Shown piece after piece: positions 4,031 through 64,000 of a stretch of 64,000 nt of DNA; the first letter of the stretch is position 1, and each line of letters starts with the position of its first letter. The stretch is from Bacillota bacterium (GTDB lineage Bacteria; Bacillota_I; Bacilli_A; RF39; UBA660), in the NCBI GenBank assembly GCA_003524085.1, contig DOEC01000029.1, positions 21,819 to 85,818 on the forward strand. The letters run 5' to 3'. The translations under genes and the position numbers were made by a program. The notes beneath the pieces are model-generated. The model searched no databases, had not been told where the DNA came from, and saw nothing but the letters and a program-made list of their open reading frames with translations.

Positions 4031-6637
4031 ATGAATGATGATTTAGATAGATTACTTGAAAAAGCTAATGAGTTAGAAAATGAAGAAGAAAATACTACAG
4101 TAACTAATGATCCAGTGAGTAATGAAACTGAAAATAAAAATGAAGATAATTCTAACTATTTTGGTGGGGAGTTTCACGAAAGAGATAAACTTTCAGTTAA
4201 TAATATCGTTGATGAAGTTGAAACATCATTTCTTGACTATTCAATGAGTGTTATTAAAGCACGTGCTTTACCTGATTTAAGAGATGGTTTAAAGCCTGTT
4301 CATAGAAGAATTTTGTGGAGTATGTATGAATGTGGGTATACACCAGATAAGCCTCATAAGAAATGCGCGACTACGGTTGGTTATGTTATTGGTCATTATC
4401 ATCCACATGGTGATACTTCTGTATATGATGCAATGGTAAGACTGGCTCAAGATTTTAATCAAAGGTATATTTTAGTTGATGGACATGGAAACTTTGGTAA
4501 TATTGAGGGAGATAGTGCTGCGGCGTATCGTTATACTGAGTCTAGACTATCAAAAATTAGTTTGGAGTTATTAAGAGACATTAATAAAAATACTGTAGAT
4601 ATGGAAGACAACTTTGATGTTACAAAGAAGGAACCTAAGGTTTTACCTTCTAGATATCCTAATATTTTAGTAAATGGTTCAATGGGTATTGCTGTTGGTA
4701 TGGCTACTAATATTCCACCACATAATTTAGGAGAAGTTATTGATGGATGTGTTGCCTATATTGATAATCCTGATATTGATACTATTGGTCTAATGCAGTA
4801 TATTAAGGGACCAGATTTTCCAACTGGTGGTGTTATTTTAGGTAATTCTGGTATTAAGCAAGCTTATGAAACAGGAAGAGGCAGTATTACTATTAGAAGT
4901 AAAGCTACAATTGAAGAAATTAAGGGTCACCCTACTATTGTTATTACTGAAGTACCTTATGGTGTTAATACTATGGAGTTAAAGAATAAGGTTGCTGAAC
5001 TTGTTCACAATAAGATTATTGATGGAATAACTGATTACCATACTGATTTAAAAGATGGAGTAAAGATAACTATTACGTTAAAGAAGGATGCTAATGCACA
5101 GGTAATTCTTAACAATTTATATAAGCATACACAATTTCAAATCAATTATGGTATTATTTTCTTGATGCTTGATGGTTTGACACCTAAGACTTTACCTTTG
5201 AAAAGTATTATTAGTAAGTATATTGACCATCAAAAAGAAGTTATTTATAGAAGAACTAAGTTTGACCTTGCAAAGAGTGAGAACAGGGTTCATATTTTAG
5301 AGGGTTATAAAATAGCACTTGATAATATTGATGAAGTTGTTAATATTATTAGGAATGCAGGGGATGATGATGAGGCTAGAACTAAACTTATTAACAGATT
5401 TGGTTTAAGTGTAGTTCAAGCTGATAGTATTCTTGAATTAAAGTTAAAGAGATTAACTGGACTAGAAAGAAATAAAATAGAGGAAGAGTTATCAACATTG
5501 TTAAAATTAATAGATGAATTGAGGTCTATTTTAGCTGATGAGAAGAAAGTTCTTGATATTATTAAGAGAGAAATGTTAGATATTAAGAATAGATTTGGTG
5601 ATGAAAGAAGAACTTCAATTGATATGACAGCAATTGATTATATTGAGGATGAATCTTTGATACCAGAAGAGGATGTAATTGTTACTATCAGTAACAAAAA
5701 TTATATAAAAAGAATGATTACAGATAATTATAAGACTCAAAATCGTGGAGGTGTTGGAATTAAGGGAATGGCTACTAATGAAGAGGACTTTGTAGAGCAA
5801 ATGATTAACTTATCCACACATGATTATTTACTTTTCTTCACAAATAAGGGTAAGGTTTATAGGTTAAAAGGCTATGAAATTCCAGAATTTTCTAGAACTA
5901 GCAAGGGTCTACCTATTATCAACTTAATTCAAATTGAAAAGGGAGAAACTGTAAGTGCAGTTGTTAAAGTAGAAAAGGAAAATGCTTATAAGTACTTTAT
6001 ATTTGGTACTAAGGAAGGTGTTATTAAGAGAACTTTAATTAGCGAATTTGATAATATTCGTCAAAAAGGTAAGATTGCTATTACTTTAAGAGAAGGAGAC
6101 GAGTTAAATTCTGTTAAGAAGTCTACTGGTGATGATTTTGTTCTTATGTGTTCTAGCCAAGGCAGAATGGTAAGGTTTAATGAGAATGAAGTTAGAATAA
6201 TGGGAAGAAGCGCTGCAGGTGTAAGAGGTATTAATTTAGTTAATGACACTTGCGTAGGTACTGAAGTAGCTCAGGATTCTCAGGAGGTATTAGTTGTTAC
6301 TTCTAAGGGTTATGGTAAGAAGACTGCTGTTAGTGAGTATAGAGAGACTAAACGTGGTAGTAAGGGTGTTAAAACGTTAAATATTACTGATAAGAACGGT
6401 GAAATCGTTGGATTTAAGTCGGTTTATAATGACTGTGATCTTATGATTATTACTAATTCAGGTATTATTATTAGATTGGATATGAATAGTGTTTCAACTA
6501 TGGGTAGAGTAACTCAAGGTGTTAGACTTATCAACTTAAAAGAGAACAGCGTTGTGTCTTCTGTCTCAATTGTTAACAAAAATTCTGAAGAAGAAGAGTT
6601 ATCAGATGATGTTTTTGATTCAAAAATTGAAGAATAA
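4031..6637 (+). CDS. gyrA: DNA gyrase subunit A
   Basis: Motifs DGLKPVHRRIL and AAAYRYTES (catalytic Tyr) are present, along with a C-terminal beta-pinwheel region and an acidic tail. A strong RBS AGGAGG precedes ATG 4031. Confidence 0.95.
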   Translation: MNDDLDRLLEKANELENEEENTTVTNDPVSNETENKNEDNSNYFGGEFHERDKLSVNNIVDEVETSFLDYSMSVIKARALPDLRDGLKPVHRRILWSMYECGYTPDKPHKKCATTVGYVIGHYHPHGDTSVYDAMVRLAQDFNQRYILVDGHGNFGNIEGDSAAAYRYTESRLSKISLELLRDINKNTVDMEDNFDVTKKEPKVLPSRYPNILVNGSMGIAVGMATNIPPHNLGEVIDGCVAYIDNPDIDTIGLMQYIKGPDFPTGGVILGNSGIKQAYETGRGSITIRSKATIEEIKGHPTIVITEVPYGVNTMELKNKVAELVHNKIIDGITDYHTDLKDGVKITITLKKDANAQVILNNLYKHTQFQINYGIIFLMLDGLTPKTLPLKSIISKYIDHQKEVIYRRTKFDLAKSENRVHILEGYKIALDNIDEVVNIIRNAGDDDEARTKLINRFGLSVVQADSILELKLKRLTGLERNKIEEELSTLLKLIDELRSILADEKKVLDIIKREMLDIKNRFGDERRTSIDMTAIDYIEDESLIPEEDVIVTISNKNYIKRMITDNYKTQNRGGVGIKGMATNEEDFVEQMINLSTHDYLLFFTNKGKVYRLKGYEIPEFSRTSKGLPIINLIQIEKGETVSAVVKVEKENAYKYFIFGTKEGVIKRTLISEFDNIRQKGKIAITLREGDELNSVKKSTGDDFVLMCSSQGRMVRFNENEVRIMGRSAAGVRGINLVNDTCVGTEVAQDSQEVLVVTSKGYGKKTAVSEYRETKRGSKGVKTLNITDKNGEIVGFKSVYNDCDLMIITNSGIIIRLDMNSVSTMGRVTQGVRLINLKENSVVSSVSIVNKNSEEEELSDDVFDSKIEE

Positions 6638-6648
6638 TGTTTAAATAT

Positions 6649-6676
6649 AAACAATGTTTCACGTGAAACATTGTTT
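6649..6676. promoter_or_regulatory. parS site 1 (28-bp palindrome)
   Basis: 16-mer TGTTTCACGTGAAACA at 6655-6670. Arms are extended by 5 bp. A T7 run follows, so the site doubles as the gyrA terminator hairpin. Confidence 0.8.
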
Positions 6677-6736
6677 TTTTGTACTCGTAATTTCTTTAGT
6701 TACGTATTAATTTGGTTAAAATGTATTAAATTAGAG

Positions 6737-6745
6737 TTATCCACA
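6737..6745 (+). promoter_or_regulatory. Perfect DnaA-box 9-mer TTATCCACA
   Basis: Exact consensus DnaA box between parS sites 1 and 2. It is a single copy, so function is unproven. Confidence 0.35.
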
Positions 6746-6793
6746 TTTTTTTGTGACAAAAAAATGATTAAATTTAAAAAAATATATGTTTAT

Positions 6794-6817
6794 TATATGT
6801 TTCACGTGAAACATATA
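6794..6817. promoter_or_regulatory. parS site 2 (24-bp palindrome)
   Basis: 16-mer TGTTTCACGTGAAACA at 6798-6813. Arms are extended by 3 bp. Confidence 0.8.
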
Positions 6818-6853
6818 GAAGTAATATATTAATTATAATGATATTAAACTATT

Positions 6854-6883
6854 TAATTAATGTTCCACGTGGAACATTAATTA
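6854..6883. promoter_or_regulatory. parS site 3 (30-bp perfect palindrome)
   Basis: 16-mer TGTTCCACGTGGAACA at 6861-6876. Arms are extended by 6 bp (TAATTA). Confidence 0.8.
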
Positions 6884-6974
6884 CAGCTGTTTTTTAGATT
6901 ATTAAATAGTTAATAAATAGATAAAATATTTTTTTATATTATTTGAATTTAAACTTTAAGTTATTTTGTTATTT

Positions 6975-7006
6975 ATATACAATGTTCCACGTGAAACATT
7001 GTATAT
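6975..7006. promoter_or_regulatory. parS site 4 (32-bp palindrome, one central asymmetry)
   Basis: 16-mer TGTTCCACGTGAAACA at 6983-6998, the exact B. subtilis consensus. Arms are extended by 7 bp. Confidence 0.85.
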
Positions 7007-7090
7007 GATAATTTGCTTATTTTCTAACCTTACTTTATTAAATATTTGATATTTTTTAAGTTTTAGATTTTATAATCCTAAAGTATTGTG

Positions 7091-7124
7091 TTATTATAAT
7101 GTTTCACGTGAAACATTATAATAA
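7091..7124. promoter_or_regulatory. parS site 5 (34-bp perfect palindrome)
   Basis: 16-mer TGTTTCACGTGAAACA at 7100-7115. Arms are extended by 8 bp. Confidence 0.8.
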
Positions 7125-7233
7125 AAAATATTTAATTTTAAATACGTATAAAACTATATTAATATCTATCTATGTGCATTAATATGTTATAAATATTTTA
7201 TTTTAATTAATATAACGTGATTAATATCTATAT

Positions 7234-7259
7234 TTTTATGTTTCACGTGGAACATAAAA
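7234..7259. promoter_or_regulatory. parS site 6 (26-bp palindrome)
   Basis: 16-mer TGTTTCACGTGGAACA at 7239-7254. Arms are extended by 4 bp. Confidence 0.8.
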
Positions 7260-7352
7260 CTTATCAATGTCTGCATATTCTAACTTTTAATTTATTTTTA
7301 TATATTTAATAAATTTAAATGTTTTTTTATGTAATCCTAAGTCACACTATAC

Positions 7353-7384
7353 TTTATTAATGTTCCACGTGAAACATTAATAAA
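7353..7384. promoter_or_regulatory. parS site 7 (32-bp palindrome)
   Basis: 16-mer TGTTCCACGTGAAACA at 7361-7376, the exact consensus. Arms are extended by 7 bp. Confidence 0.85.
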
Positions 7385-7485
7385 ATTAAATTATTAAAAA
7401 TAATAGTAGATACATTAAGTGATGAGTATTTATGAAAATTTAAATAATTAAATTTTTATTACATAAATCTTAAAATAATGTTTAA

Positions 7486-7513
7486 ATTTAATGTTCCACG
7501 TGGAACATTAAAT
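7486..7513. promoter_or_regulatory. parS site 8 (28-bp perfect palindrome)
   Basis: 16-mer TGTTCCACGTGGAACA at 7492-7507. Arms are extended by 5 bp. Confidence 0.8.
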
Positions 7514-7658
7514 ATTTTTTGAAAATATAATTTAATTGTTAATTGTATTATTTAATCTTTAGTATGTTGATTTAAACACATTATTAATTATTTATATAGA
7601 AATTATTATTATTTTAACGTGTTGGTATGATTATTAACACTTTATAATAATTAAAACA

Positions 7659-7676
7659 ATGTTTCACGTGAAACAT
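7659..7676. promoter_or_regulatory. parS site 9 (18-bp core only)
   Basis: 16-mer TGTTTCACGTGAAACA at 7660-7675. There is no arm extension. The site lies 17 bp upstream of the ffs -35 box. Confidence 0.8.
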
Positions 7677-7692
7677 ATAGTGTTTTATTATT

Positions 7693-7720
7693 TTGAATAC
7701 TTCACTTTTTATGTTATAAT
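7693..7720 (+). promoter_or_regulatory. Sigma-A type promoter of ffs
   Basis: TTGAAT (7693-7698), a 16-nt spacer, then extended -10 TGTTATAAT (7712-7720). Confidence 0.65.
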
Positions 7721-7725
7721 GTATT

Positions 7726-7804
7726 CGTGCAATGGGTGACGTGGAACCAGGTCAGAATCGGAAGATAGCAGCCTTAACATTAATCATTCATGTGCACTTT
7801 TTTT
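7726..7804 (+). ncRNA. ffs: Small (4.5S-like) signal recognition particle RNA
   Basis: The domain IV core CCAGGTCAGAATCGGAAGATAGCAGCC carries a GGAA tetraloop (7760-7763). The closing helix is GTGCAATGGGTGA / TCATTCATGTGCAC, followed by a T-run. No Alu domain is present. Confidence 0.8.
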
Positions 7805-7818
7805 AAAGGAGAAAATCA

Positions 7819-8229
7819 ATGAATGAGAGTTATCAACAAATTTTATATAAATTAGCTATGAAAGCTTATAAGAAGGGTGACATACCTGTTGCAGCAATTT
7901 TAGTTAAAGATAATAAGATAGTAGCAAAAGCTTATAATAAAAGGTTTAAAAATAATAGTTTACTAGGTCATGCTGAAATAATATGTATTTTAAAAGGTAC
8001 AAAAAAGTTAAAATCATGGAGATTAACTGACTGTGATTTATATGTTACTTTGGAACCTTGTGCTATGTGTCGTGAAGTTATTAAGGAAGCTAGAGTTGAA
8101 AATGTTTATTATTTATGTGATAAGACAAAAAATGTGGTTAATAAAACGCATTTTATTAAGTTAAATAGCAGTACAAATGATCTGTATTCTAGGCTGTTAA
8201 CAGATTTTTTTGATACTCTTAGAAAATAA
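7819..8229 (+). CDS. tadA: tRNA adenosine(34) deaminase
   Basis: 136 aa with CMP/dCMP deaminase zinc motifs HAEI and PCAMC. RBS is AAAGGAG. Confidence 0.85.
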   Translation: MNESYQQILYKLAMKAYKKGDIPVAAILVKDNKIVAKAYNKRFKNNSLLGHAEIICILKGTKKLKSWRLTDCDLYVTLEPCAMCREVIKEARVENVYYLCDKTKNVVNKTHFIKLNSSTNDLYSRLLTDFFDTLRK

Positions 8230-13504: not shown

Positions 13505-14344
13505 ATGATACAAAAGAGTTATGATAAGGAAATTAGTAATTGTTATATAGTACCTACACCTATTGGAAATATGAAAGATATGACCTTTAGAAGTGTTGAA
13601 GTGCTTAAACAAGTAGATGCAGTTTTTGCAGAAGATACTAGAGTAACTGGCGTACTTTTAAATAACTTAGATATTAAAAAGAAGATTTATCAAAATCAGA
13701 AGTTTAATGAAGCTAAAGCTAGTGGTGTGGCAGTGGAGTTATTAAAAGAAGGAAAAAATATTGCAGTTGTTACAGATAGGGGAACTCCACTTATAAGTGA
13801 CCCTGGAAATGTTTTGGTGTCTGAAGTTATAAAGAATGGATTTAATGTGATAGCTTTACCCGGCGCTTGTGCTTTTGTACCTGCTTTAAATATGTCTAAT
13901 ATTAATCAAGAAAAATTTTTGTTTTATGGTTTTTTGAGTTCTAAAGAAGGACAGGCGTGTCATGAATTAGAGAAGTTAAAGAGTATCAACTTTACAATAG
14001 TTTTATATGAAGCACCTCATAGACTTTATAAAACTTTACAAAATATAGAAAAAATCTTGGGAAATATTCAAATAAGTATTTCCCGGGAAATAACTAAGCT
14101 TCATGAAGAGGTGTTTAGGGGTAGTGTTAGCGAGGCTTTGGAAATTTATAAAGAAGTTAAAGGCGAAATTGTAATCGTTATTGATAATAATAAGAATGAA
14201 GTTGACTATGAAGTTTCTTTTAAGGAAGTTATGGACTTAATTAAACTTGGTGTTAAACCAAATGATGCAGTTAAATATGTTTCTAAGAAAAATGAAGTTA
14301 GTAGGAATATTTTATATAGTATGTATGAGGAGGGTAAGAAATGA
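13505..14344 (+). CDS. rsmI: 16S rRNA (cytidine1402-2'-O)-methyltransferase
   Basis: N-terminal YIVPTPIGNMKDMTFR..L..VD.VFAEDTR and the REITKLHEE motif are present (tetrapyrrole-methylase fold family). Confidence 0.85.
   Translation: MIQKSYDKEISNCYIVPTPIGNMKDMTFRSVEVLKQVDAVFAEDTRVTGVLLNNLDIKKKIYQNQKFNEAKASGVAVELLKEGKNIAVVTDRGTPLISDPGNVLVSEVIKNGFNVIALPGACAFVPALNMSNINQEKFLFYGFLSSKEGQACHELEKLKSINFTIVLYEAPHRLYKTLQNIEKILGNIQISISREITKLHEEVFRGSVSEALEIYKEVKGEIVIVIDNNKNEVDYEVSFKEVMDLIKLGVKPNDAVKYVSKKNEVSRNILYSMYEEGKK
14078..14091. promoter_or_regulatory. Noc-binding-site (NBS) palindrome ATTTCCCGGGAAAT inside rsmI
   Basis: Exact match to the 14-bp B. subtilis NBS consensus, and a 16-bp palindrome over 14077-14092. 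It encodes I-S-R-E-I using the codons TCC and CGG. Confidence 0.55.
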
Positions 14345-21422: not shown

Positions 21423-21451
21423 TTGACTTTTTTTCTTTTTTTTGCTATAAT
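21423..21451 (+). promoter_or_regulatory. Near-consensus sigma-A promoter
   Basis: TTGACT (21423-21428), a 17-nt spacer, then TATAAT (21446-21451). Confidence 0.65.
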
Positions 21452-21457
21452 TTAGAT

Positions 21458-21920
21458 GTGTGGAGCATTATGCTAGTCAAACACACCTTATGAAGATGGG
21501 GCTAAAAATCCATCAATTGTGCAATGTCACTTTATATATTTTGCTTCTTTCGCCCAGATTGGGGCAGGTATGTAATTTTAGGTATTAGGAGAAGATATAA
21601 CGGCATATATTCATATCCTATTATCAGATGAATTAGTAAAAAGCATATGTCGTGAGTGGGATATAGGGATATTATTTGAAATATAAACTGCAAAAGCGAA
21701 TAAATAAGGTTAATGTTTGCCTGGGAAAACCTCTAGCATGTCTATATTATAAAGATTGAAGTGCGGACTAAGTGGTGATCGAGTGGTCATTTAAGGTAAC
21801 TGATGATTAATATTATGAAAGAGAAATCGCCGGTGGGTAACCTAAGGTTAATATTAGAGAAATTCAACTCGACCAAAGCCGTAAAATTAATTTATAGTAT
21901 TCCATACATTTTTTCTCAAA
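21458..21920 (+). other. ~460-nt promoter-driven non-coding region (unidentified structured RNA or very long 5' leader)
   Basis: The track shows no ORF here. G+C is visibly higher than in neighbouring spacers. Local hairpins include GATGG..CCATC and GCCC..GGGC. I recognised no Rfam-type signature. Confidence 0.35.
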
Positions 21921-21936
21921 GGGAGTTTATTGTAAA

Positions 21937-52653: not shown

Positions 52654-52685
52654 CTTGGAAGTATTAAAACTTCTGAGTTTTTTCT
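52654..52685 (+). terminator. Probable terminator
   Basis: GGAAGT / ACTTCT imperfect stem followed by T7. Confidence 0.45.
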
Positions 52686-52724
52686 TTTAATTTGTTATGT
52701 TTTTTGATACAATTATATTGGTGA

Positions 52725-55071
<2,347 letters not shown>

Positions 55072-55282
55072 TGCTCATTTTTTCTTGTAATAGGTTATTT
55101 GACAATATTTTTAAGATATGCAAGTGTTATAATAAATTTTAGAATAAATGTCAGTATAATTTCTATTTAATTAGGTGTTTTTATGAATAAAGAGATGTTA
55201 AAGTAGTAATAATTAGTGTATAACTTAATGTAAACTAGAAATATTCTATAAAATATAGTATAATTTTATGTAGGTGATTTAT

Positions 55283-55747
55283 GTGAAGAAAATTTTAAAA
55301 GAAAATAGGACATTATTTGTGTTAGCGATAATTATATTAATATCATTAGTTTTGATGGGTGTAGGACTAATTAGTTATTTTTATGGTAATAATAAAAATC
55401 CTTATGGAGATAGACTAAAAGATATAGATAATCATAAAATTAGTGAGAGCATTGCTAGTGATATAAAAGGTATTTATGAAGAAAATGTTAGTGATGTTAG
55501 AGTTGAAGTGAAGGGAAAGATTATTTATATTATAATGAATGTAAATGATGGAGTAAGTAAAATAGATGCAGAAGGGTACGCTGTTAAGGCGCTAGAAAAA
55601 TTTAAGAGTGAAGATTTAGAGTATTATGATGTACAGTTTTTGATTACTTGTAGTGATGAAAAAAAAGAAGAAGATGAGAAAGCAATTTATCCAATTGCTG
55701 GAGCTAAAAAGGCTAAGGGTAGTCAAATAATTTGGAGTAATAATTAA
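55283..55747 (+). CDS. Hypothetical membrane-anchored protein
   Basis: GTG 55283 follows RBS AGGTGA (the track start at 55274 overlaps the RBS). N-terminal TM. Confidence 0.45.
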   Translation: MKKILKENRTLFVLAIIILISLVLMGVGLISYFYGNNKNPYGDRLKDIDNHKISESIASDIKGIYEENVSDVRVEVKGKIIYIIMNVNDGVSKIDAEGYAVKALEKFKSEDLEYYDVQFLITCSDEKKEEDEKAIYPIAGAKKAKGSQIIWSNN

Positions 55748-55756
55748 GGAGTTATA

Positions 55757-57754
55757 ATGAAAAAAAATAAGAAATATTTTTTAATAGGTGGACTTGTATT
55801 AGTTTTAATAGTTTTAATATTATGTTTACTTATGTACTTGAATAGTAGAAAGAATGGTTATTCTTTTAGTGAGAAGAGCTTTATTAATTCAAACTTAAAT
55901 AATGTAATAGATGTAAGTGTTGAAGGAAGTTTACCAATATTTAGTAATAGTGGTGTTGGAGTGTTCTATGATTTTGTTAATTTTATGGAAAGAGATACTA
56001 AACTTACTTTTAATGTTCAAGTTAATGGAAGTGGAACTTATAAATTTACAAATAAGAATGAACTAGGTGGTAATGATCTACTTTTTTATACTGATCACTT
56101 TGTTGTTGTTAGTACGTTGAGTGACGAGATAGTTGATTTAAATACTTTAAGTGGAAAAAATGTTGCTGTTATGGATACTGATAAAGATTATGTTAGTAAA
56201 TATATGAGTGAATATAATGTGAATATTGTTAGTTTTAGTCATTTTAATGATTTAACTGATCAAATGAGCGATAGCGTTTTATATGCAATATTACCAATGC
56301 AAAAGTATATTAATTCCATAGTTTATAATAAATATAATATAGTTTATCATATTGATGGACTACACTCTCATTATGTTTTGAGTATGAATGATGCTAGTAG
56401 TACGATGAGTAAGATATTCACTAAAGCATTTAATATGTGGAAAAGTGAAATTTTACCTAGCATTAATAGTCATTTTTTAGAGTTATATTATGACGCGTAC
56501 AACTTAACAGAAGTTGAAAAAGAAAGAGTAACAAGTGATGATTTAATAGTAGGATATGTTGATAATATGCCATTCGAAGGAAAACTTAATAGAAACTTTA
56601 GTGGTATTACTTCTACGTACTTAGGTATATTTAGTGATATGACAGGAGCTACTTATAAATACATTGAATACAAAAATATTAATAAATTAATAGAAGCATT
56701 AAATAATAAAAAAGTAGATTTGGCAGTAAACTATTATGATGTAAATAGTTCAAACTATGTTGATAGTGTAAGTTTAGGTACTATTAAGTATGTAATTCTT
56801 GCACATCAAAGTAATAAAGATAGTTTTGATAATTTAGTTTCAATAAGTGATGATAATATTAAAATGGTTGGGAATACTAAACTTTATAAGTATATAAGTG
56901 GTATAAATAGTAATATAAATACTTATAAAGATTATAAAAAAATGTTTAAGAGTTTAACAAAAGAAGATATTCTTGTAATTGAAAAGAGTACATATGATTA
57001 TTATAAAAATAGTAGTCTTAAGAAATATGTGATTAAATATATGGGTGAGAGTACTGTTAGTAATACATTCCTTTTAAATAATGATAATAAAGTTTTAAAT
57101 AATTTATTTAACTTTTATTTGAGCACTACTAGTAATAATAATATTGAGAGTATGGCTATTGATAATAGTTTAAATATGGCTAGTAGAAATATTTTAATTG
57201 AGTTTATTATAAGTAATATTACTTATTTAGTTCTTCTTGTTATTGCAGTAGTTTTCTTACTTTATAAGTTTAATAGAAAAGTTAAAGTAACTAAGAAGAT
57301 TAAAAAAGAAGATAAGATGATGTATTTAGATGTAATGACTAATTTAAAAAATAGAAATTATTTAAATGATAATTTAAGTTATTGGGAAGATAATAAAGTG
57401 TATCCTCAAGCTGTTGTAGTAATTGATTTAAATAATATTTCAATTATTAATGATACTAAAGGGCATGAAGAGGGAGACAGACAGATTAAGAGTGCAGCTA
57501 GTATTCTTATTAAAACACAAAGAGAAAATAGTGAGATTATTAGAACTGATGGTAATGAATTTCTTATATATTTAGTTGGTTATGAAGAAAATCAAATAGT
57601 GACTTATGTTAATAAGTTAATGAAGGAATTTAAGAGTCTTCCTTATGAATATGGAGCTAGTATGGGATACTTTATGATAACAAGTGAGAGTACTACTATA
57701 GATGATGCAATTAATGAAGCCTTAATTAAAATGAGAGAAAATAAAGGAGAGTAA
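55757..57754 (+). CDS. Membrane sensor with two periplasmic-binding-protein-like domains and a degenerate GGDEF domain
   Basis: N-terminal TM, about 450 aa extracytoplasmic, a second TM, and then a GGDEF fold (NRNYL..., IND..GHEEGD) whose active-site motif reads DGNEF (57548-57562). Confidence 0.7.
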   Translation: MKKNKKYFLIGGLVLVLIVLILCLLMYLNSRKNGYSFSEKSFINSNLNNVIDVSVEGSLPIFSNSGVGVFYDFVNFMERDTKLTFNVQVNGSGTYKFTNKNELGGNDLLFYTDHFVVVSTLSDEIVDLNTLSGKNVAVMDTDKDYVSKYMSEYNVNIVSFSHFNDLTDQMSDSVLYAILPMQKYINSIVYNKYNIVYHIDGLHSHYVLSMNDASSTMSKIFTKAFNMWKSEILPSINSHFLELYYDAYNLTEVEKERVTSDDLIVGYVDNMPFEGKLNRNFSGITSTYLGIFSDMTGATYKYIEYKNINKLIEALNNKKVDLAVNYYDVNSSNYVDSVSLGTIKYVILAHQSNKDSFDNLVSISDDNIKMVGNTKLYKYISGINSNINTYKDYKKMFKSLTKEDILVIEKSTYDYYKNSSLKKYVIKYMGESTVSNTFLLNNDNKVLNNLFNFYLSTTSNNNIESMAIDNSLNMASRNILIEFIISNITYLVLLVIAVVFLLYKFNRKVKVTKKIKKEDKMMYLDVMTNLKNRNYLNDNLSYWEDNKVYPQAVVVIDLNNISIINDTKGHEEGDRQIKSAASILIKTQRENSEIIRTDGNEFLIYLVGYEENQIVTYVNKLMKEFKSLPYEYGASMGYFMITSESTTIDDAINEALIKMRENKGE

Positions 57755-57756
57755 GT

Positions 57757-58638
57757 ATGCTAGATAGGTTCAAAGTATTTTGTAAAAACTTATATGATAT
57801 GATGATGAAACCTGAAATGCTTACTTTGCCTAGTAGTCTTGCGTATTACTTTGTACTAGCGGTTGTACCAATTATTTCAATACTTCTTTTGATAGCAACA
57901 GAGTTTAATTTATCAACTAGTTATATTACAGAGTTTTTGGAGAGTAATTTTAGTAGTGAACTTGCTAGTTTAGTTACGCCTATACTTACAAATCAGGGTT
58001 TGTCATTTGGTTTTGTAGTTTATATATTAGTAGCTTTCTTTATAGTTAGTAATGGTGCTGATGCAATAATAGTTGCAAGTAATATGATATTTAATATAGA
58101 GAATAAAAATTATTTTGTTAGAAGAATGAAAGCTTTTGTTTTAACACTTGTGTTATTCTTACTGTTTACATTTATGTTAGTTGTACCTGTGTTTGGTGAA
58201 CAGATACTTACAGTGTTAACTTATATCGGGTTTAATAATAAGATAATTGATGTGTTAAAAATGCTTTATCCAGTATTAAATGTTCCACTTACATTATTTG
58301 TGATGTACTTGGGAATAAAATTAATCTTTATAATAGCGCCTGATGAGAAAATAAAGAGTAAGTATGTTAATAAAGGGGCTATATTTACTACTGTTTGTTG
58401 GTTCTTAGTAACTTTAGTGTATAGCTATTATATCAAACATATTGCTACATATAACATTTATTATGCTGGACTTAGTACAATAGTAACACTTATGGTGTGG
58501 TTCTATTTTCTAGCATTCATATTCGTATTAGGATTATCTTTTAACTATAATACAGTTGAAAAGAAAATAGAAGAAACTAATGCAATTAAATTAAAAGAGA
58601 TTGAAGAAAAGGTTAAAATGAGTAAAAATCATGTTTGA
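57757..58638 (+). CDS. YihY/BrkB-family membrane protein
   Basis: LPSSLAYYFVLAVVPII N-terminal signature, with 6 TM. Confidence 0.6.
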   Translation: MLDRFKVFCKNLYDMMMKPEMLTLPSSLAYYFVLAVVPIISILLLIATEFNLSTSYITEFLESNFSSELASLVTPILTNQGLSFGFVVYILVAFFIVSNGADAIIVASNMIFNIENKNYFVRRMKAFVLTLVLFLLFTFMLVVPVFGEQILTVLTYIGFNNKIIDVLKMLYPVLNVPLTLFVMYLGIKLIFIIAPDEKIKSKYVNKGAIFTTVCWFLVTLVYSYYIKHIATYNIYYAGLSTIVTLMVWFYFLAFIFVLGLSFNYNTVEKKIEETNAIKLKEIEEKVKMSKNHV

Positions 58639-58733
58639 TCTTTTTTTAATTGTGACAATATTGTGAAAATGATGTGTATTTAATGACTTTTCTTCTGAAA
58701 TTTGGTAAAATATTGTTGTGAGGAATGATTAGA

Positions 58734-60692
58734 ATGAAGAATACTATTAAAAACTTTGTTAAGAAATTTAAAAAGTATTATAGTACTAATATTTTGTTTT
58801 TGACATATTCATTAACTTCTTTAATAATTGGGACTTTACTTAGAGCTTTAACAATGGGATTAACATTTGATTTTAGACCTTTTATATGGGACTTAGTTAT
58901 TATTCTTATATTTGGTTCTTTTGGTTATTTGTTTAAACCTAAAAATCAATTCAAGTATTTTTTAAGTGTTAATATAGTTTTTACACTTATATGTGTTGTT
59001 AATTCTATTTATTATATGTTTTATACTAATTATGTAAGTGTAAGTTTACTTAGTACAATGAGTATGTTTGGACAAGTAAGTGATTCGGTTACTACTAAAT
59101 TAAGATTAGAATACTTTGTTTATTTACTTGCGCCTATAACACTTATAGTAGTTAATAAACTTCTTGTTAAAAAGAATTATTATTACAATGTTGGAAAAGA
59201 AGAAAAAGGAAAGTTGATGTTCAGAAGGACTGGAGTGTGTGCACTTATTCTCGGAATTATGATAGGACTTACTATGACAAAGAGTGATGGAAGTAAATTA
59301 GTTAAACTTTGGAACAGGGATGCAGTTGTTAAAAGATTTGGAATATATACTTATATGTTAAGTGATATGGTAACAAGCTTAACTCCTGCGATTAGTCCGA
59401 TGTTTGGATATGATGAGAGTGCTCATACGTTTTTAGAGTTTTATAGTAAAGATAGAACTTATGAAACAAATAAGTACACTAATATATTTGAAGATAAGAA
59501 TGTAATATTTATTCATATGGAGAGTATTCAAAATTTCTTAATTGATTTAAAAGTTAATGGAGTAGAGATAACTCCTAATATAAATAAACTTAGTAGGGAA
59601 GGAATGTACTTTAGTAAGTTTTATCCACAAATTAGTATTGGAACAAGTAGTGATACTGAGTTTACTTTGAGTACTGGGATTTTACCAAGTTCTTCAGGGA
59701 CAGTGTTTGTAAATTATTTTAATAGAAAATATGAGAGTATGGAGAGAGCTTTTGATAATAAAGGCTACTACACATTTAGTATGCATGCTAATGTGGGAGA
59801 TTATTGGAATAGAAAGAATATGTATAATACTTTAGGATATAAAGAGTATTTTGATAAATCTTATTTTGAAGTACCAACTGACAAGAAAAGTGAAGATTTA
59901 GTAGGACTTGGGTTAAGTGATAAGTCTTTCTTTAAACAAATTATTCCTATTTTAAAAAATATTAAAGAAAGTAATACTAAGTATATGGGTAAGATTATTA
60001 CGTTAAGTAATCATAGTCCATTTGATGATGTTACTAAATATGGCAATATTGATTTAGGATATCTAAATGATACAGAAATGGGTAACTATTTAAAAAGTGC
60101 ACATTATGCTGATGAAGCACTTGGTATGTTCTTTAAACTTGTTAAAGAAAATGGGTTAGACGAGGACACCGTATTTATATTATACGGGGATCATGAGAGT
60201 AAACTAGGCAAAAAAAACTTGAATTTACTATATAATTACGATGAAAAATCAGGTGAATATAAGAATAAACTTGACCCTACTTATGTTGATTTAGACAATT
60301 ACCAATATGATATTCTTAAAAATACACCTTTGATTATCTATACAAGTAATGGTATAATAAATGGTGAAGTTAAAGATGTGATGGGAATGTGGGATGTGTT
60401 TCCAACTGTAGCAAACATGTTTAATTTAAGTTATAAGTATCCTTTAGGAAATGATATTTTCAGCAGAAATGATAAAATAGTAGTTTTTCCTAATGGAGAT
60501 ATTATTACAAATAAAGTGTTTTATAACAATTTAAGGGATGAATATGTTTCTTTGACTTCTGAGCCTATTAGTAGTGAGTATATTGATCAAATTAAGTTAT
60601 ATGCTGAAGTGAGACTTGAGGTAAGTAAAGGTATAATTGTACATAATTTGATAAGCACAGAGAGTGAGAAATTAGAAAGGATAAAAAGATGA
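58734..60692 (+). CDS. ltaS: Lipoteichoic acid synthase family protein (sulfatase domain)
   Basis: 5 TM followed by an extracellular sulfatase-like domain (HMESIQNF, TSSDTEFTLSTG). I preferred ATG 58734 over 58725. Confidence 0.7.
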   Translation: MKNTIKNFVKKFKKYYSTNILFLTYSLTSLIIGTLLRALTMGLTFDFRPFIWDLVIILIFGSFGYLFKPKNQFKYFLSVNIVFTLICVVNSIYYMFYTNYVSVSLLSTMSMFGQVSDSVTTKLRLEYFVYLLAPITLIVVNKLLVKKNYYYNVGKEEKGKLMFRRTGVCALILGIMIGLTMTKSDGSKLVKLWNRDAVVKRFGIYTYMLSDMVTSLTPAISPMFGYDESAHTFLEFYSKDRTYETNKYTNIFEDKNVIFIHMESIQNFLIDLKVNGVEITPNINKLSREGMYFSKFYPQISIGTSSDTEFTLSTGILPSSSGTVFVNYFNRKYESMERAFDNKGYYTFSMHANVGDYWNRKNMYNTLGYKEYFDKSYFEVPTDKKSEDLVGLGLSDKSFFKQIIPILKNIKESNTKYMGKIITLSNHSPFDDVTKYGNIDLGYLNDTEMGNYLKSAHYADEALGMFFKLVKENGLDEDTVFILYGDHESKLGKKNLNLLYNYDEKSGEYKNKLDPTYVDLDNYQYDILKNTPLIIYTSNGIINGEVKDVMGMWDVFPTVANMFNLSYKYPLGNDIFSRNDKIVVFPNGDIITNKVFYNNLRDEYVSLTSEPISSEYIDQIKLYAEVRLEVSKGIIVHNLISTESEKLERIKR

Positions 60693-61321
60693 GGAAAGTT
60701 TTAAATAAAAATAAGTTATTCTATTTTGTTATGATTAGTTTAATTTTAGTAGTTATTATAGTAATTGGTGTAAAGTTTACTCTTGAGTTTTTAGTTAAAG
60801 ATGATAAGAACGTAGTTACAAAGAAAGAACTTGATAGTTTAGAGTTGTATGGCTATACATTAGATGATTACGATAGTGATTTATATAAAGAGTATTTTAA
60901 TGATTTAAAGGGTACTTTAAATAGTAAAGAAGTTAATTATGAAGATTATGCTAAAGAAATAGTAAAATTATTTGTGAGTGATTTTTATACTTTAGATAAT
61001 AAACTTACTAGTAGTGATATAGGTGGTGTTGAATTTATTCCTAGTGATATGGTAGAGAACTTTAAAATGCATGCTGGAGATACTATGTATAATCATGTTA
61101 AAACTAATATTTATGGAGATAGAGTACAAAAGTTACCTATTGTAAAGAGTGTTGAAGTAACTAATATAGAGAATATTACTTATACTTATAAAGATAAAGA
61201 GTATTCAGCTTATAAAGTTAGTGCTAGGTGGGAATATCAAGAAGATTTGGGATATAAGAATAATGAAATATTTACTTTAATTAAAGATAATAATAAATTA
61301 TATATTGTTGTGGGGGAATAA
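60689..61321 (+). CDS. Hypothetical membrane-anchored protein
   Basis: 210 aa with an N-terminal TM. ATGA overlap with ltaS. Confidence 0.45.
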   Translation: MRKVLNKNKLFYFVMISLILVVIIVIGVKFTLEFLVKDDKNVVTKKELDSLELYGYTLDDYDSDLYKEYFNDLKGTLNSKEVNYEDYAKEIVKLFVSDFYTLDNKLTSSDIGGVEFIPSDMVENFKMHAGDTMYNHVKTNIYGDRVQKLPIVKSVEVTNIENITYTYKDKEYSAYKVSARWEYQEDLGYKNNEIFTLIKDNNKLYIVVGE

Positions 61322-61322
61322 T

Positions 61323-62648
61323 ATGAATGAAGTATATGATTATTTACTTAACAAGAGTGGTGTAAGATACAGAGATACTATAGTTTTAGGAATAAGTGGT
61401 GGGCCTGACTCGATGGCTTTACTTAGTATTATGCTTAAACTTAAAAGTGAACTAGATTTAGTTTTAATAGTTGCACATGTTAACCATAATGTTAGAGAAG
61501 AAAGTAAGGAAGAAGAAGAGTATGTAAGAAAGTATGCTAAAGAAATCGGAGTTATTTTTGAAGGACTAAGTGTTAAAAATTGGGGAGATGATAACTTTGA
61601 AAATGAAGCTAGAACTGTTAGATATAATTTCTTTGAAAAGATAGTTAGAGAATATAATGCTAAATATTTAATGACAGCACATCATGGGGACGATTTAATT
61701 GAGACTATTCTTATGCGTATAGTAAGAGGTTCTACTTTAAAAGGATATAGTGGATTTAGTAAATGTGTTGGTAGAGATGGGTATACAATTATTAGACCTT
61801 TAATTAGTGTTACAAAAGATACTTTAGTTAAATATTGTGAAGAAAATGGGGTAAAATATTATATAGATAAGACTAACTTAGATGATGTTCATACAAGAAA
61901 TAGATATAGGAAATGTATGTTACCATTTTTAAAAAAAGAAGACCCATTAGTACATGAAAAGTTTTTGAAGTTTAGTGAAACTTTGCTTTTATATAATAAT
62001 TATATTGATAAAGAAATTAAAGAAGTGATCACTAAAGTATTTAAAGGTGGAGTATTAGATATTCCTAAGTTTAAAGAGCTTGACTATTTAATTCAAAGTA
62101 AGATTATTTATAGTATACTAGAGAAAATATATGGAGATGATTTATTCATTGTTACTAGTACACATGTTAATTTGATATTTGATTTAATAAATAAAGAAAC
62201 TCCTAATAGTGTGGTTCATTTACCTAATAATGTTAAAGTGGTAAGAGCTTATGATGAAGTTAGTTTTGATTATGAAGAAGAAGAATCTAACGTGTATGAA
62301 ATTGAGATAAATGATGTTGTGAATTTACCTAATGGAAAGAATATTGAAGTAGTAAGTAGTTGTGAAGATACTAGTAACAATACTATTAGACTAAATATTG
62401 ATGATATTACATTACCTCTTTATGTTAGAACTAGAAGAAACGGAGACAAGATGATGGTTAAAGGAATGAATGGACATAAAAAGGTTAATGATATATTTAT
62501 AGATAGTAAGATTTCTACAAAAGATAGACATGTTTGGCCAGTTGTGAGTGATGCAGAAAATAACATTATTTGGATACCTGGACTTAAAAAGAGTAAATTT
62601 GATGTAGAAAAAGGTAAAAAGTGTGATATAATACTTAAGTACTATTAA
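61323..62648 (+). CDS. tilS: tRNA(Ile)-lysidine synthetase
   Basis: PP-loop GISGGPDSMAL. ATG 61323. Confidence 0.9.
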   Translation: MNEVYDYLLNKSGVRYRDTIVLGISGGPDSMALLSIMLKLKSELDLVLIVAHVNHNVREESKEEEEYVRKYAKEIGVIFEGLSVKNWGDDNFENEARTVRYNFFEKIVREYNAKYLMTAHHGDDLIETILMRIVRGSTLKGYSGFSKCVGRDGYTIIRPLISVTKDTLVKYCEENGVKYYIDKTNLDDVHTRNRYRKCMLPFLKKEDPLVHEKFLKFSETLLLYNNYIDKEIKEVITKVFKGGVLDIPKFKELDYLIQSKIIYSILEKIYGDDLFIVTSTHVNLIFDLINKETPNSVVHLPNNVKVVRAYDEVSFDYEEEESNVYEIEINDVVNLPNGKNIEVVSSCEDTSNNTIRLNIDDITLPLYVRTRRNGDKMMVKGMNGHKKVNDIFIDSKISTKDRHVWPVVSDAENNIIWIPGLKKSKFDVEKGKKCDIILKYY

Positions 62649-62663
62649 AGAAAGGAAGAGATT

Positions 62664-64000
62664 ATGAAAAAGAAAAATATGTTTAAAGACATTATGCCTT
62701 ATATTATGCTTATATTTGTAGTTGGTATTATTTACTATACATTTAATTTAAATAATGTTAAGGTTAATGAAATGAATTATAATGAGTTTTTAACTAATTT
62801 AAAAGGAGAAAAGGTTAAGGAATTAACTGTTACACCAAAAGATAGTGATAGTGTATATTTGATAACTGGTAAACTAGAAAACTATAGTAAAAACGAGACA
62901 TTTAAGTTGATTGTTCCATATACAGATAGTGTTATTGATAACATTCTTAGTATTAGTAATGAACAACAACTTGATGTTAAGATTAATAAAGATCCAGGAA
63001 GTGTTAGTTGGTTAGTAATAATTTTAGATTTCGTGCCAATACTTTTAATCGGTGGACTTACTATTTATTTAGTAAGAGCGATGATGGGTAATGGCAAAGG
63101 TGGAACACTAGACTTTGGAAGAAGTAGAGCTAAACTTAATCAAGAAGGTGGAAAAGTTACATTTAAGGATGTTGCTGGACTTAATGAAGAGAAAGAGGAA
63201 GTTAAAGAGTTAATAGACTTTTTAAAGAGTCCTAAGAAGTTTACTAAGTTAGGGGCTAGAATTCCTAAAGGTGTTTTATTAGTTGGTCCTCCAGGAACAG
63301 GTAAAACATTACTTGCAAAAGCAGTAGCTGGAGAAGCTAAAGTACCATTTTATTATATAAGTGGAAGTGATTTCGTTGAGTTATTCGTTGGTGTTGGTGC
63401 ATCACGTGTAAGAGATATGTTTAAACAAGCTAAACAAAATGCTCCATGTTTAATATTTATTGATGAAATAGATGCAGTGGGTAGACAAAGAGGAACAGGA
63501 TTAGGTGGAGGACATGATGAAAGAGAACAAACTTTAAACCAATTACTTACTGAGATGGATGGTTTTGGGGCTAATGAAGGTATTATAATTATAGCTGCAA
63601 CTAATAGACCAGATGTACTTGATCCTGCACTTTTAAGACCAGGTAGATTTGATAGACAAGTTACTGTTAATTTACCAGATGTTAGAGAAAGAGAAGCTAT
63701 ACTTAATGTTCATGCTAAGGGTAAGATTTTTGATAAAGCTGTTAACTTGAAGAGAATAGCTGAGAGAACTCCAGGGTATAGTGGAGCTGACTTAGAAAAC
63801 TTACTTAATGAAGCTGCACTTTTAGCTGTTAGAAGAAATAAAGACGATATTGGAATGGACGAGATAGATGAAGCTAGTGATAGGGTTCTTATGGGTCCTG
63901 CTAAAGTTAGTAGGAAAGTAACAGATTATGAAAAGAATATAGTAGCTTATCATGAAAGTGGACATGCCGTTTTAGGAATAGAACTTCCTAATGGTGAAGA
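62664..64000 (+). CDS. ftsH: ATP-dependent zinc metalloprotease FtsH (3' end outside window)
   Basis: ATG 62664 follows RBS AGGAAGAG. Walker [19 protein letters not shown], the SRH region and HESGHA at the window edge are present. The frame is open to position 64000. Confidence 0.92.

Follow-up and report, generated by a model that had tools for sequence, protein, structure and literature searches.

A dense array of nine parS sites between gyrA and ffs as the probable chromosomal centromere of an uncultured gut Bacilli species

The gyrA-ffs spacer and its parS sites

The DNA analyzed here (the window; 64,000 nucleotides, positions 21,819 to 85,818 of contig DOEC01000029.1, from an uncultured member of the Bacilli) carries nine copies of parS, the 16-bp site of the partition protein ParB (Spo0J), in the gene-free spacer that separates gyrA from ffs, the gene for the signal recognition particle (SRP) RNA. 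Comparison with related genomes makes it highly probable that this spacer is the centromere of the chromosome, offering nine high-affinity loading sites to a canonical ParB. Genes around it are arranged in the order trmE-jag-yidC-rnpA-rpmH, dnaA-dnaN-comK-recF-gyrB-gyrA, array, ffs-tadA-dnaX-ybaB-recR-bofA, which matches that of Bacillus subtilis, except that the gyrA-tadA interval is much shorter here. The rpmH-dnaA spacer holds six clustered DnaA boxes (at most one mismatch) and is also the place where the GC skew switches sign; the array therefore lies approximately 9 kb to the right of the replication origin (oriC), the origin-proximal location of a chromosomal parS locus.

Exactly nine matches to TGTTYCACGTGRAACA occur in the window, all within 6655-7675 (Table 1), with start-to-start spacings of 143, 63, 122, 117, 139, 122, 131 and 168 bp, and dinucleotide-preserving shuffles of the window give a chance expectation of 0.00 matches. 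All nine starts and spacings listed in an earlier reading of this sequence (the initial annotation) are thereby reproduced. Relaxing the pattern to TGTTNCACGTGNAACA (any base at the two degenerate positions) with up to two mismatches adds no site across the 64 kb. No further parS is present in the 20 kb to the left of gyrA (L127) or in the 10 kb past the right end of the window (L164); together, the window, L127 and L164 make up the approximately 94 kb of DNA inspected around oriC. The initial annotation had every copy fitting the Firmicute consensus once a symmetric change is allowed, with copies 4 and 7 exact. The fit stands, and the exact copies number six: copies 1, 2, 4, 5, 7 and 9 conform to TGTTNCACGTGAAACA, and the other three deviate from it solely by the mirror-image G at position 12. 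Copies 1, 2, 5 and 9 have the fully symmetric sequence TGTTTCACGTGAAACA. Every array site has G as the second base of its 16-mer and A as the seventh (G1/A6, the parS type), and none matches the Noc-binding site (NBS) sequence ATTTCCCGGGAAAT (A1/C6).

The spacer itself is, as first described, gene-free and very A+T-rich: positions 6640-7719 are 17% G+C, just one open reading frame (ORF) reaches 40 aa, a TTG ORF of 53 aa (6671-6832), and no Rfam family lies within it. The units of approximately 120-140 bp that make up the array share no homology outside the palindromes, and Tandem Repeats Finder (TRF) detects no tandem unit of 30 bp or more in the spacer. No helical phasing of the site spacings was detected.

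Cognate ParB, selection and conservation of the locus

A canonical ParA-ParB pair is encoded in the same species. Contig L164, from another strain, overlaps positions 52676-64000 of the window at 99.03% nucleotide identity and continues past it with the gene order tilS-ftsH-parA-parB-DUF951-abgT-ychF. The parA and parB genes overlap by 50 nt and correspond to approximately 65,117-66,776 in window-equivalent positions, which puts them 1.1 kb past the right end and approximately 57 kb farther along the replichore that carries the array. They follow ftsH, away from gidB-noc, with oriC between them and the classical position. On L164, parAB and its vicinity are free of parS. The encoded ParB passes the NCBIfam model parB_part (192.7 bits, cutoff 58.45) and has an N-terminal LGKGL motif and GERR in box II. 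Its DNA-binding region (GKSRSHITN..LK..MGHAR) gives R173 and G201 (Caulobacter numbering), the residues that confer parS specificity; R173 is present in every variant specific for parS (Jalal et al. 2020, PMC7383237). Identity to the B. subtilis proteins is 57% for ParA (Soj) and 42% for ParB (Spo0J); the B. subtilis probes (Spo0J, Soj and Noc) were used solely to locate and align homologues, and family assignments rest on Pfam and NCBIfam results. The species thus combines a consensus palindrome, a parS-type ParB and a Soj-type ParA encoded with ParB, as chromosomal parS systems do.

The soj/spo0J pair that the initial annotation had wished to see confirmed is therefore present in the species, on a 99% identical contig. 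That the genome might encode no ParB, as a classical locus with a Noc-type protein only had suggested, is overturned because L164 carries parA-parB past the window end. An abundant 293-aa ParB (P0164; whiA-soj-spo0J context, no overlap with the window) belongs to another species of the clade and is not evidence here; it was reached through the relative L148 (noc-soj-spo0J), itself fetched with the Noc-like protein.

Selection on the sites is apparent from the sister species L050 (GyrA 97% identical), in which all nine site positions are kept in a spacer that is 83% identical. Counted between the gyrA stop codon and the ffs promoter, 1 of 126 specified bases (14 per site) has changed (0.8%), compared with 3 of 18 bases at the two free N positions (16.7%), 14.5% of the 12-bp site flanks and 18.0% of the spacer (binomial P = 4e-10 for the specified bases). 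This pattern indicates strong base-specific purifying selection on exactly those bases that ParB reads. The sole core change, CACGTG to CATGTG in copy 7 of L050, is predicted to inactivate that copy.

Conservation of the locus extends well beyond this pair. A scan of 185,579 species genomes for three parS with gaps of 100-130 bp matched at least 120 loci, placing dense parS arrays in at least 120 genomes of many phyla. Among the matches listed, at least 34 loci belong to low-G+C genomes labeled 'uncultured Bacilli/Tenericutes/Mycoplasma sp.' (GyrA 59-97% identical), all with 3-15 parS (median 7) in the same gyrA-tadA slot. An A precedes the site in 237 of 243 cases and a T follows it in 242 of 243 among these matches, and the conserved unit in the clade is therefore an 18-mer. 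The mode of clade spacings near 120 bp is biased by the search pattern and supports no conclusion. The comparison of the gyrA-ffs spacer with relatives, as proposed in the initial annotation, finds the site positions conserved in L050 and the location in the gyrA-tadA slot conserved across the clade. In at least approximately 44 other loci among the matches listed, from Bdellovibrionota, Acidobacteriota, Actinomycetota, Clostridia, Achromobacter and others, a single 8-kb chunk holds both the array and parA/parB, and the array mostly lies immediately upstream of parA. At least nine sites within 1 kb are found in 15 of the 86 non-clade loci listed.

Individual arrays in the scan are also of note. 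A metagenome-assembled genome (MAG) of the Granulosicoccaceae (L092) carries 51 parS in 4.8 kb. In a Saprospirales MAG (L114), one parS centers a perfect inverted repeat of more than 3.8 kb, possibly an assembly artefact. A Treponema MAG (L093) has its array directly after gyrA like the Bacilli clade, apparently by convergence.

Copy number and unit structure turn over at this locus. Strains of the window's species mostly have nine copies and otherwise eight: copies 1 and 2 are fused by a 143-bp deletion in L003, and copies 7 and 8 by a deletion of approximately 130 bp in L166, L170 and L171; strain L168 has one mismatch in copy 3. Several relatives have true tandem arrays with units of 40, 46, 63-64, 117, 120 or 125-126 bp that are 85-100% identical (e.g. 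10.7 x 125 bp at 91% in L051 and 7 x 64 bp at 100% in L041). TRF periods in these relatives range from 40 to 258 bp, with up to 15 sites and spacing down to 36 bp. Near-identical tandem arrays occupy the same gyrA-tadA slot in L009, L014, L023, L041, L051, L078, L102, L110, L126 and others. Such near-identity implies recent amplification at the locus. Other relatives resemble the window in that their units share no homology. Because tandem relatives, fusions and homology-free arrays coexist, the locus appears to cycle through amplification, divergence and loss, with several sites always kept. This turnover would proceed by unequal recombination and tandem amplification between sites.

Each parS 16-mer also centers a longer perfect palindrome of 18-34 bp, with arms that differ from copy to copy. 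Beyond the 16-mer, the arms extend by 6, 4, 7, 8, 9, 5, 8, 6 and 1 bp in copies 1-9 (sum 54), compared with a null mean of 0.62 bp in the same spacer; none of 100,000 resamplings of nine positions reached 54. As single-stranded DNA, the sites form predicted hairpins of -5 to -11 kcal/mol (copy 1, -9.9; copy 5, -10.8). Compared with L050, the arms have diverged at nearly the rate of the spacer, and copies 4, 5 and 8 carry mirrored double substitutions that retain complementarity (A:T to G:C in copy 4). Three such changes against approximately 0.5 expected, a rough figure that assumes independence, are suggestive at most. Long arms are seen in the clade's diverged arrays and in some of those from other phyla, and freshly amplified arrays have the A/T pair only; long arms are therefore dispensable for function.

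Template switching at quasipalindromes is an established mutational process, and the arms are most simply explained by hairpin-templated correction between them, with the core frozen by selection. Rather unlikely is a selected role for the long palindromes, in which extruded hairpins or cruciforms would be substrates for ParB clamp loading, barriers to sliding, or bidirectional terminators that insulate the island; the arms would then be kept complementary by compensatory evolution, like structured RNAs. In a weaker version, templated repair within the palindrome may make each parS 'self-healing', which would account for nine perfect sites in an A+T-rich, fast-evolving spacer. The co-evolving arms are a natural test case of templated palindrome correction versus selection on DNA secondary structure.

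Table 1. Coordinates of the parS copies, flanking genes and partition-related genes (positions in the window unless a contig is named).
Feature	Position	Strand	Core or length	Description
Spacer	6638..7722			gene-free, gyrA stop codon to SRP RNA gene; all nine parS inside
parS copy 1	6649..6676		6655-6670 TGTTTCACGTGAAACA	28-bp perfect palindrome, then T7
parS copy 2	6794..6817		6798-6813 TGTTTCACGTGAAACA	24-bp palindrome
parS copy 3	6854..6883		6861-6876 TGTTCCACGTGGAACA	30-bp palindrome
parS copy 4	6975..7006		6983-6998 TGTTCCACGTGAAACA	32-bp palindrome
parS copy 5	7091..7124		7100-7115 TGTTTCACGTGAAACA	34-bp palindrome
parS copy 6	7234..7259		7239-7254 TGTTTCACGTGGAACA	26-bp palindrome
parS copy 7	7353..7384		7361-7376 TGTTCCACGTGAAACA	32-bp palindrome
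parS copy 8	7486..7513		7492-7507 TGTTCCACGTGGAACA	28-bp palindrome
parS copy 9	7659..7676		7660-7675 TGTTTCACGTGAAACA	18 bp, A/T flank pair alone
DnaA box	6737..6745	+	TTATCCACA	perfect; between copies 1 and 2; kept in L050
gyrA	4031..6637	+	868-aa ORF	left boundary; Pfam DNA_topoisoIV, DNA_gyraseA_C
ffs (SRP RNA)	7723..7803	+		right boundary; Rfam RF00169, 46.1 bits, gathering score 40
tadA	7819-8229			downstream of ffs; Pfam dCMP_cyt_deam_1
parA	L164:14429-15253		274 aa	Pfam ParA/CbiA/AAA_31
parB	L164:15204-16088		294 aa	Pfam ParB_N + HTH_ParB
noc-type gene	L127:14023-15180		385 aa	approximately 16 kb left of window start; Pfam ParB_N + HTH_ParB

GC skew is very strong and positive over the entire window, at approximately 0.3-0.5 for the majority of 1-kb windows, and almost every gene is on the plus strand; this fits a leading-strand bias of the PolC type just right of oriC. 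Perfect DnaA boxes number six in the window (5810, 6737, 32978, 40684, 42508 and 59621; 0.93 expected), and the relevance of the one inside the array is uncertain. A ComK-family gene (Pfam PF06338; 456-911) lies between dnaN and recF, a placement common to many relatives in the clade. Further along is an ornate large extremophilic (OLE) RNA (21444-21921; Rfam RF01071, 209 bits), the host here being a 28% G+C uncultured Bacilli genome from the human gut. The exact GyrA is present on many human-gut metagenome contigs.

Alternative explanations of the array

The alternative that survives best, though it remains improbable, is that the ParB-bound array is mainly regulatory or architectural, silencing or insulating gyrA and ffs, modulating DnaA via ParA near oriC, or forming cruciforms or barriers that hold ParB within the array. 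Transcription signals do adjoin the sites. The palindrome of copy 1 begins 12 nt past the gyrA stop codon and, with 12 pairs followed by a T run, probably doubles as the gyrA terminator; a consensus scan finds terminator-like matches at copies 1, 3 and 8 (0.1 expected). A promoter-like TTGAAT-16-TATAAT with an extended TG (7693-7720), which fits ffs, has its -35 element 18 bp downstream of copy 9. In Pseudomonas aeruginosa, ParB represses promoters adjoining intergenic parS (PMC7022226). The conserved DnaA box inside the array and the three mirrored double substitutions that keep arms complementary could be read in the same way. However, arrays of relatives vary from 36-bp to 127-bp periods and from 3 to 15 copies, many without long arms, and no fixed promoter geometry is conserved because unit length and number differ so greatly. 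The sites lack helical phasing, and the few mirrored changes are explained by a neutral mutational mechanism.

It is very unlikely that the binder of the array is the ParB-family product of the gene adjoining gidB and not canonical ParB. This protein is the only ParB homologue at the classical gidB-noc-soj-spo0J position, where a single ParB-family gene stands without parA/soj here and in related species; a hidden Markov model (HMM) built from 36 ParBs detects no other ParB homologue across the window and the 20 kb to its left. Nor is the protein a textbook Noc: the N-terminal amphipathic membrane helix that B. subtilis Noc possesses is missing, an acidic insert of approximately 130 aa is present, and V/A stand at the K171/S172 DNA contacts that are otherwise conserved in both families, all of which is conserved in related species. 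Against its binding the array, its best NCBIfam model is nucleoid_noc (289 bits, cutoff 315), and its specificity residues are Q173, K179, N184 and R201. Q173 and R201 with a permissive lysine specify NBS, in contrast to the invariable R173 of parS-specific proteins; the QKNR combination itself is absent from the variants in the supplement of the same study (Jalal et al. 2020, PMC7383237). Perfect NBS sites exist as well: one of 16 bp, TATTTCCCGGGAAATA, at 14077-14092 inside an rsmI-like gene, and a second in the jag-trmE spacer (L127:9928) that is conserved in several related species. The gidB-adjacent protein is thus not the binder of the array, given its Noc-type residues, its nucleoid_noc match and these perfect NBS sites, and the species has a canonical ParB with R173 and G201.

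Plasmids typically carry their partition sites as dense arrays in non-coding DNA, sopC of F being an example. This likeness, and a spacer far more A+T-rich than its flanks, would suit the stranded centromere of an integrated plasmid or prophage, a reading that is nonetheless scarcely credible. The flanks are core genes in a B. subtilis-like order, with no integrase or mobile-element genes between them, and the slot is occupied by arrays in at least 34 genomes with GyrA identity down to 59%. Blastn of the spacer against 72,556 plasmid and 50,697 phage records returned no similarity. The site has the chromosomal parS consensus, and ParA and ParB are chromosomal in type and context (ftsH-parA-parB-DUF951-ychF). 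Neither head-to-tail units nor a plasmid or phage derivation, the two marks of a sopC-like centromere, is found in the window.

Generic extragenic palindromes, or intrinsic terminators and hairpins that resemble parS by accident, are a similarly implausible source: three copies are terminator-like, all fold and the arms reach beyond the ParB site, but no copy lies elsewhere in the DNA inspected, unlike dispersed elements of the miniature inverted-repeat transposable element (MITE) kind or of the repetitive extragenic palindromic (REP) kind, the latter considered in the initial annotation; the 14 conserved bases are exactly those of the pan-bacterial parS; selection relative to L050 falls on the specified bases but spares the arms; arrays of this 16-mer occur near parA/parB in the other phyla; and recently amplified arrays of relatives manage with 1 bp of extra pairing.

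The array as a centromere and its relation to known systems

The parAB genes, the lack of dispersed copies in the DNA inspected, the selection on the sites and the conserved slot all support the dedicated chromosomal centromere that the initial annotation had proposed. By analogy with model systems, ParB dimers would bind each site, close as clamps that hold CTP and then slide away along the DNA on either side; with nine loading sites next to each other, the loading rate and the local density of ParB would be multiplied, giving one large partition complex, on which ParA would act to separate sister origins. The more parS are clustered, the more strongly B. subtilis ParB condenses DNA (7, 13 and 26 sites condense it in the assay used; 1, 2 and 4 do not) and the higher the force at which it does so (PMC8299390). 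SMC-ScpAB may also be loaded at the array, as in model organisms; with all sites within 1 kb, loop extrusion would start from one point without competing positions. Widely separated loading sites provoke SMC collisions that tightly clustered sites avoid (PMC8357415). The non-coding setting, from the copy 1 terminator to the ffs promoter, would keep most sites outside transcribed DNA, and the longer palindromes would be a by-product of hairpin-templated correction between arms.

Several points weigh against a centromere of this kind. The organism is uncultured, and the role of ParB at the array is argued from sequence comparison. Sites were counted over the DNA inspected around oriC, approximately 94 kb of a genome that the longest contig shows to be at least 1.2 Mb, and other parS may exist. 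The parAB genes were read from another strain of the species and not from the window itself, and their distance of 57 kb exceeds that of most arrays elsewhere, which adjoin parA upstream. Within the same DNA, no smc or scpAB genes were found. ParB of L164 reads GERRSIA where 120 relatives read GERRV(K/R)A (one strain), making the third basic residue of its arginine patch an atypical Ile. In B. subtilis, the arginine patch is needed for ParB spreading. Clamp behavior or spreading may accordingly be atypical in this ParB. Finally, a single parS suffices in several species (PMC7022226; PMC7083940), and the benefit of nine sites is for that reason inferential.

If the gyrA-ffs spacer is the centromere, it would provide a landmark in abundant uncultured gut Bacilli with small genomes, of use in origin calling, metagenomic Hi-C and estimates of replication rate. 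The scattered intragenic pattern of B. subtilis fails for this lineage of Bacilli, as all detectable sites lie in one non-coding island, and this concentration is in keeping with the idea that SMC collisions are avoided where sites are tightly clustered. Judging by the genome scan, very dense arrays, with up to 51 sites in 4.8 kb, are a common feature of uncultured phyla; a limited literature search turned up no survey of them. The clade also offers modest comparative material on a centromere whose copy number evolves by amplification, fusion and decay.

The closest reference is the Spo0J/Soj/parS system of B. subtilis (Lin and Grossman 1998), which shares with this locus the identical 16-bp site, the origin-proximal position and a Noc paralogue by gidB. 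Copies 4 and 7 have its sequence TGTTCCACGTGAAACA, and copies 1, 2, 5 and 9 the symmetric optimum. B. subtilis scatters 8-10 mostly intragenic parS over approximately 0.75 Mb (PMC8357415), whereas all nine sites detected here lie in 1 kb of non-coding DNA, with parAB away from noc/gidB, across oriC. Noc is a ParB paralogue whose 16-bp palindromic site departs from parS at two positions per half-site pair; this system coexists with parS here, its NBS sites being single and dispersed whereas the parS sites are clustered.

Scattering is in fact confined to a few lineages including Bacilli, and most bacteria cluster parS within 5-40 kb or a few kb apart (PMC8357415). This, the Myxococcus xanthus cluster and the dense arrays in at least 120 genomes show that the exceptional and plasmid-like framing in the initial annotation was overstated. 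Corynebacterium glutamicum has ten parS in 35 kb, nine of them intergenic (PMC7083940), and P. aeruginosa four near oriC; in both, multiple intergenic origin-near sites act as one hub for SMC loading and segregation, with one sufficing and multiplicity thought to give robustness. Their density is one to two orders of magnitude below that of the array. In M. xanthus, 22 origin-proximal parS repeats in approximately 3 kb are bound by ParB as a large complex (Iniesta 2014, PMC3899335), a dense consensus array of approximately 7 sites per kb compared with approximately 9 per kb here. That cluster lies approximately 4 kb upstream of parA in a 9-Mb high-G+C genome in which ParABS is essential, unlike the array described here, which belongs to a small 28% G+C genome, is separated from parAB by 57 kb and has copy-specific extended palindromes.

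Plasmid tandem centromeres such as sopC share with the array many short palindromic ParB-family sites in non-coding DNA, and relatives with tandem units (periods 40-126 bp, 85-100% identical) match them in repeat architecture as well. The sopC locus consists of 12 true tandem repeats of 43 bp with a different sequence, bound by SopB. The units in the window differ in having no homology outside the site, a chromosomal consensus and no similarity to plasmids. Taken together, the array has the site, the partner proteins and the origin-proximal position of a chromosomal ParABS system; it stands out by a density above most described cases and unusual for Bacilli, by its distance from parAB, and by the previously unremarked palindrome arms.

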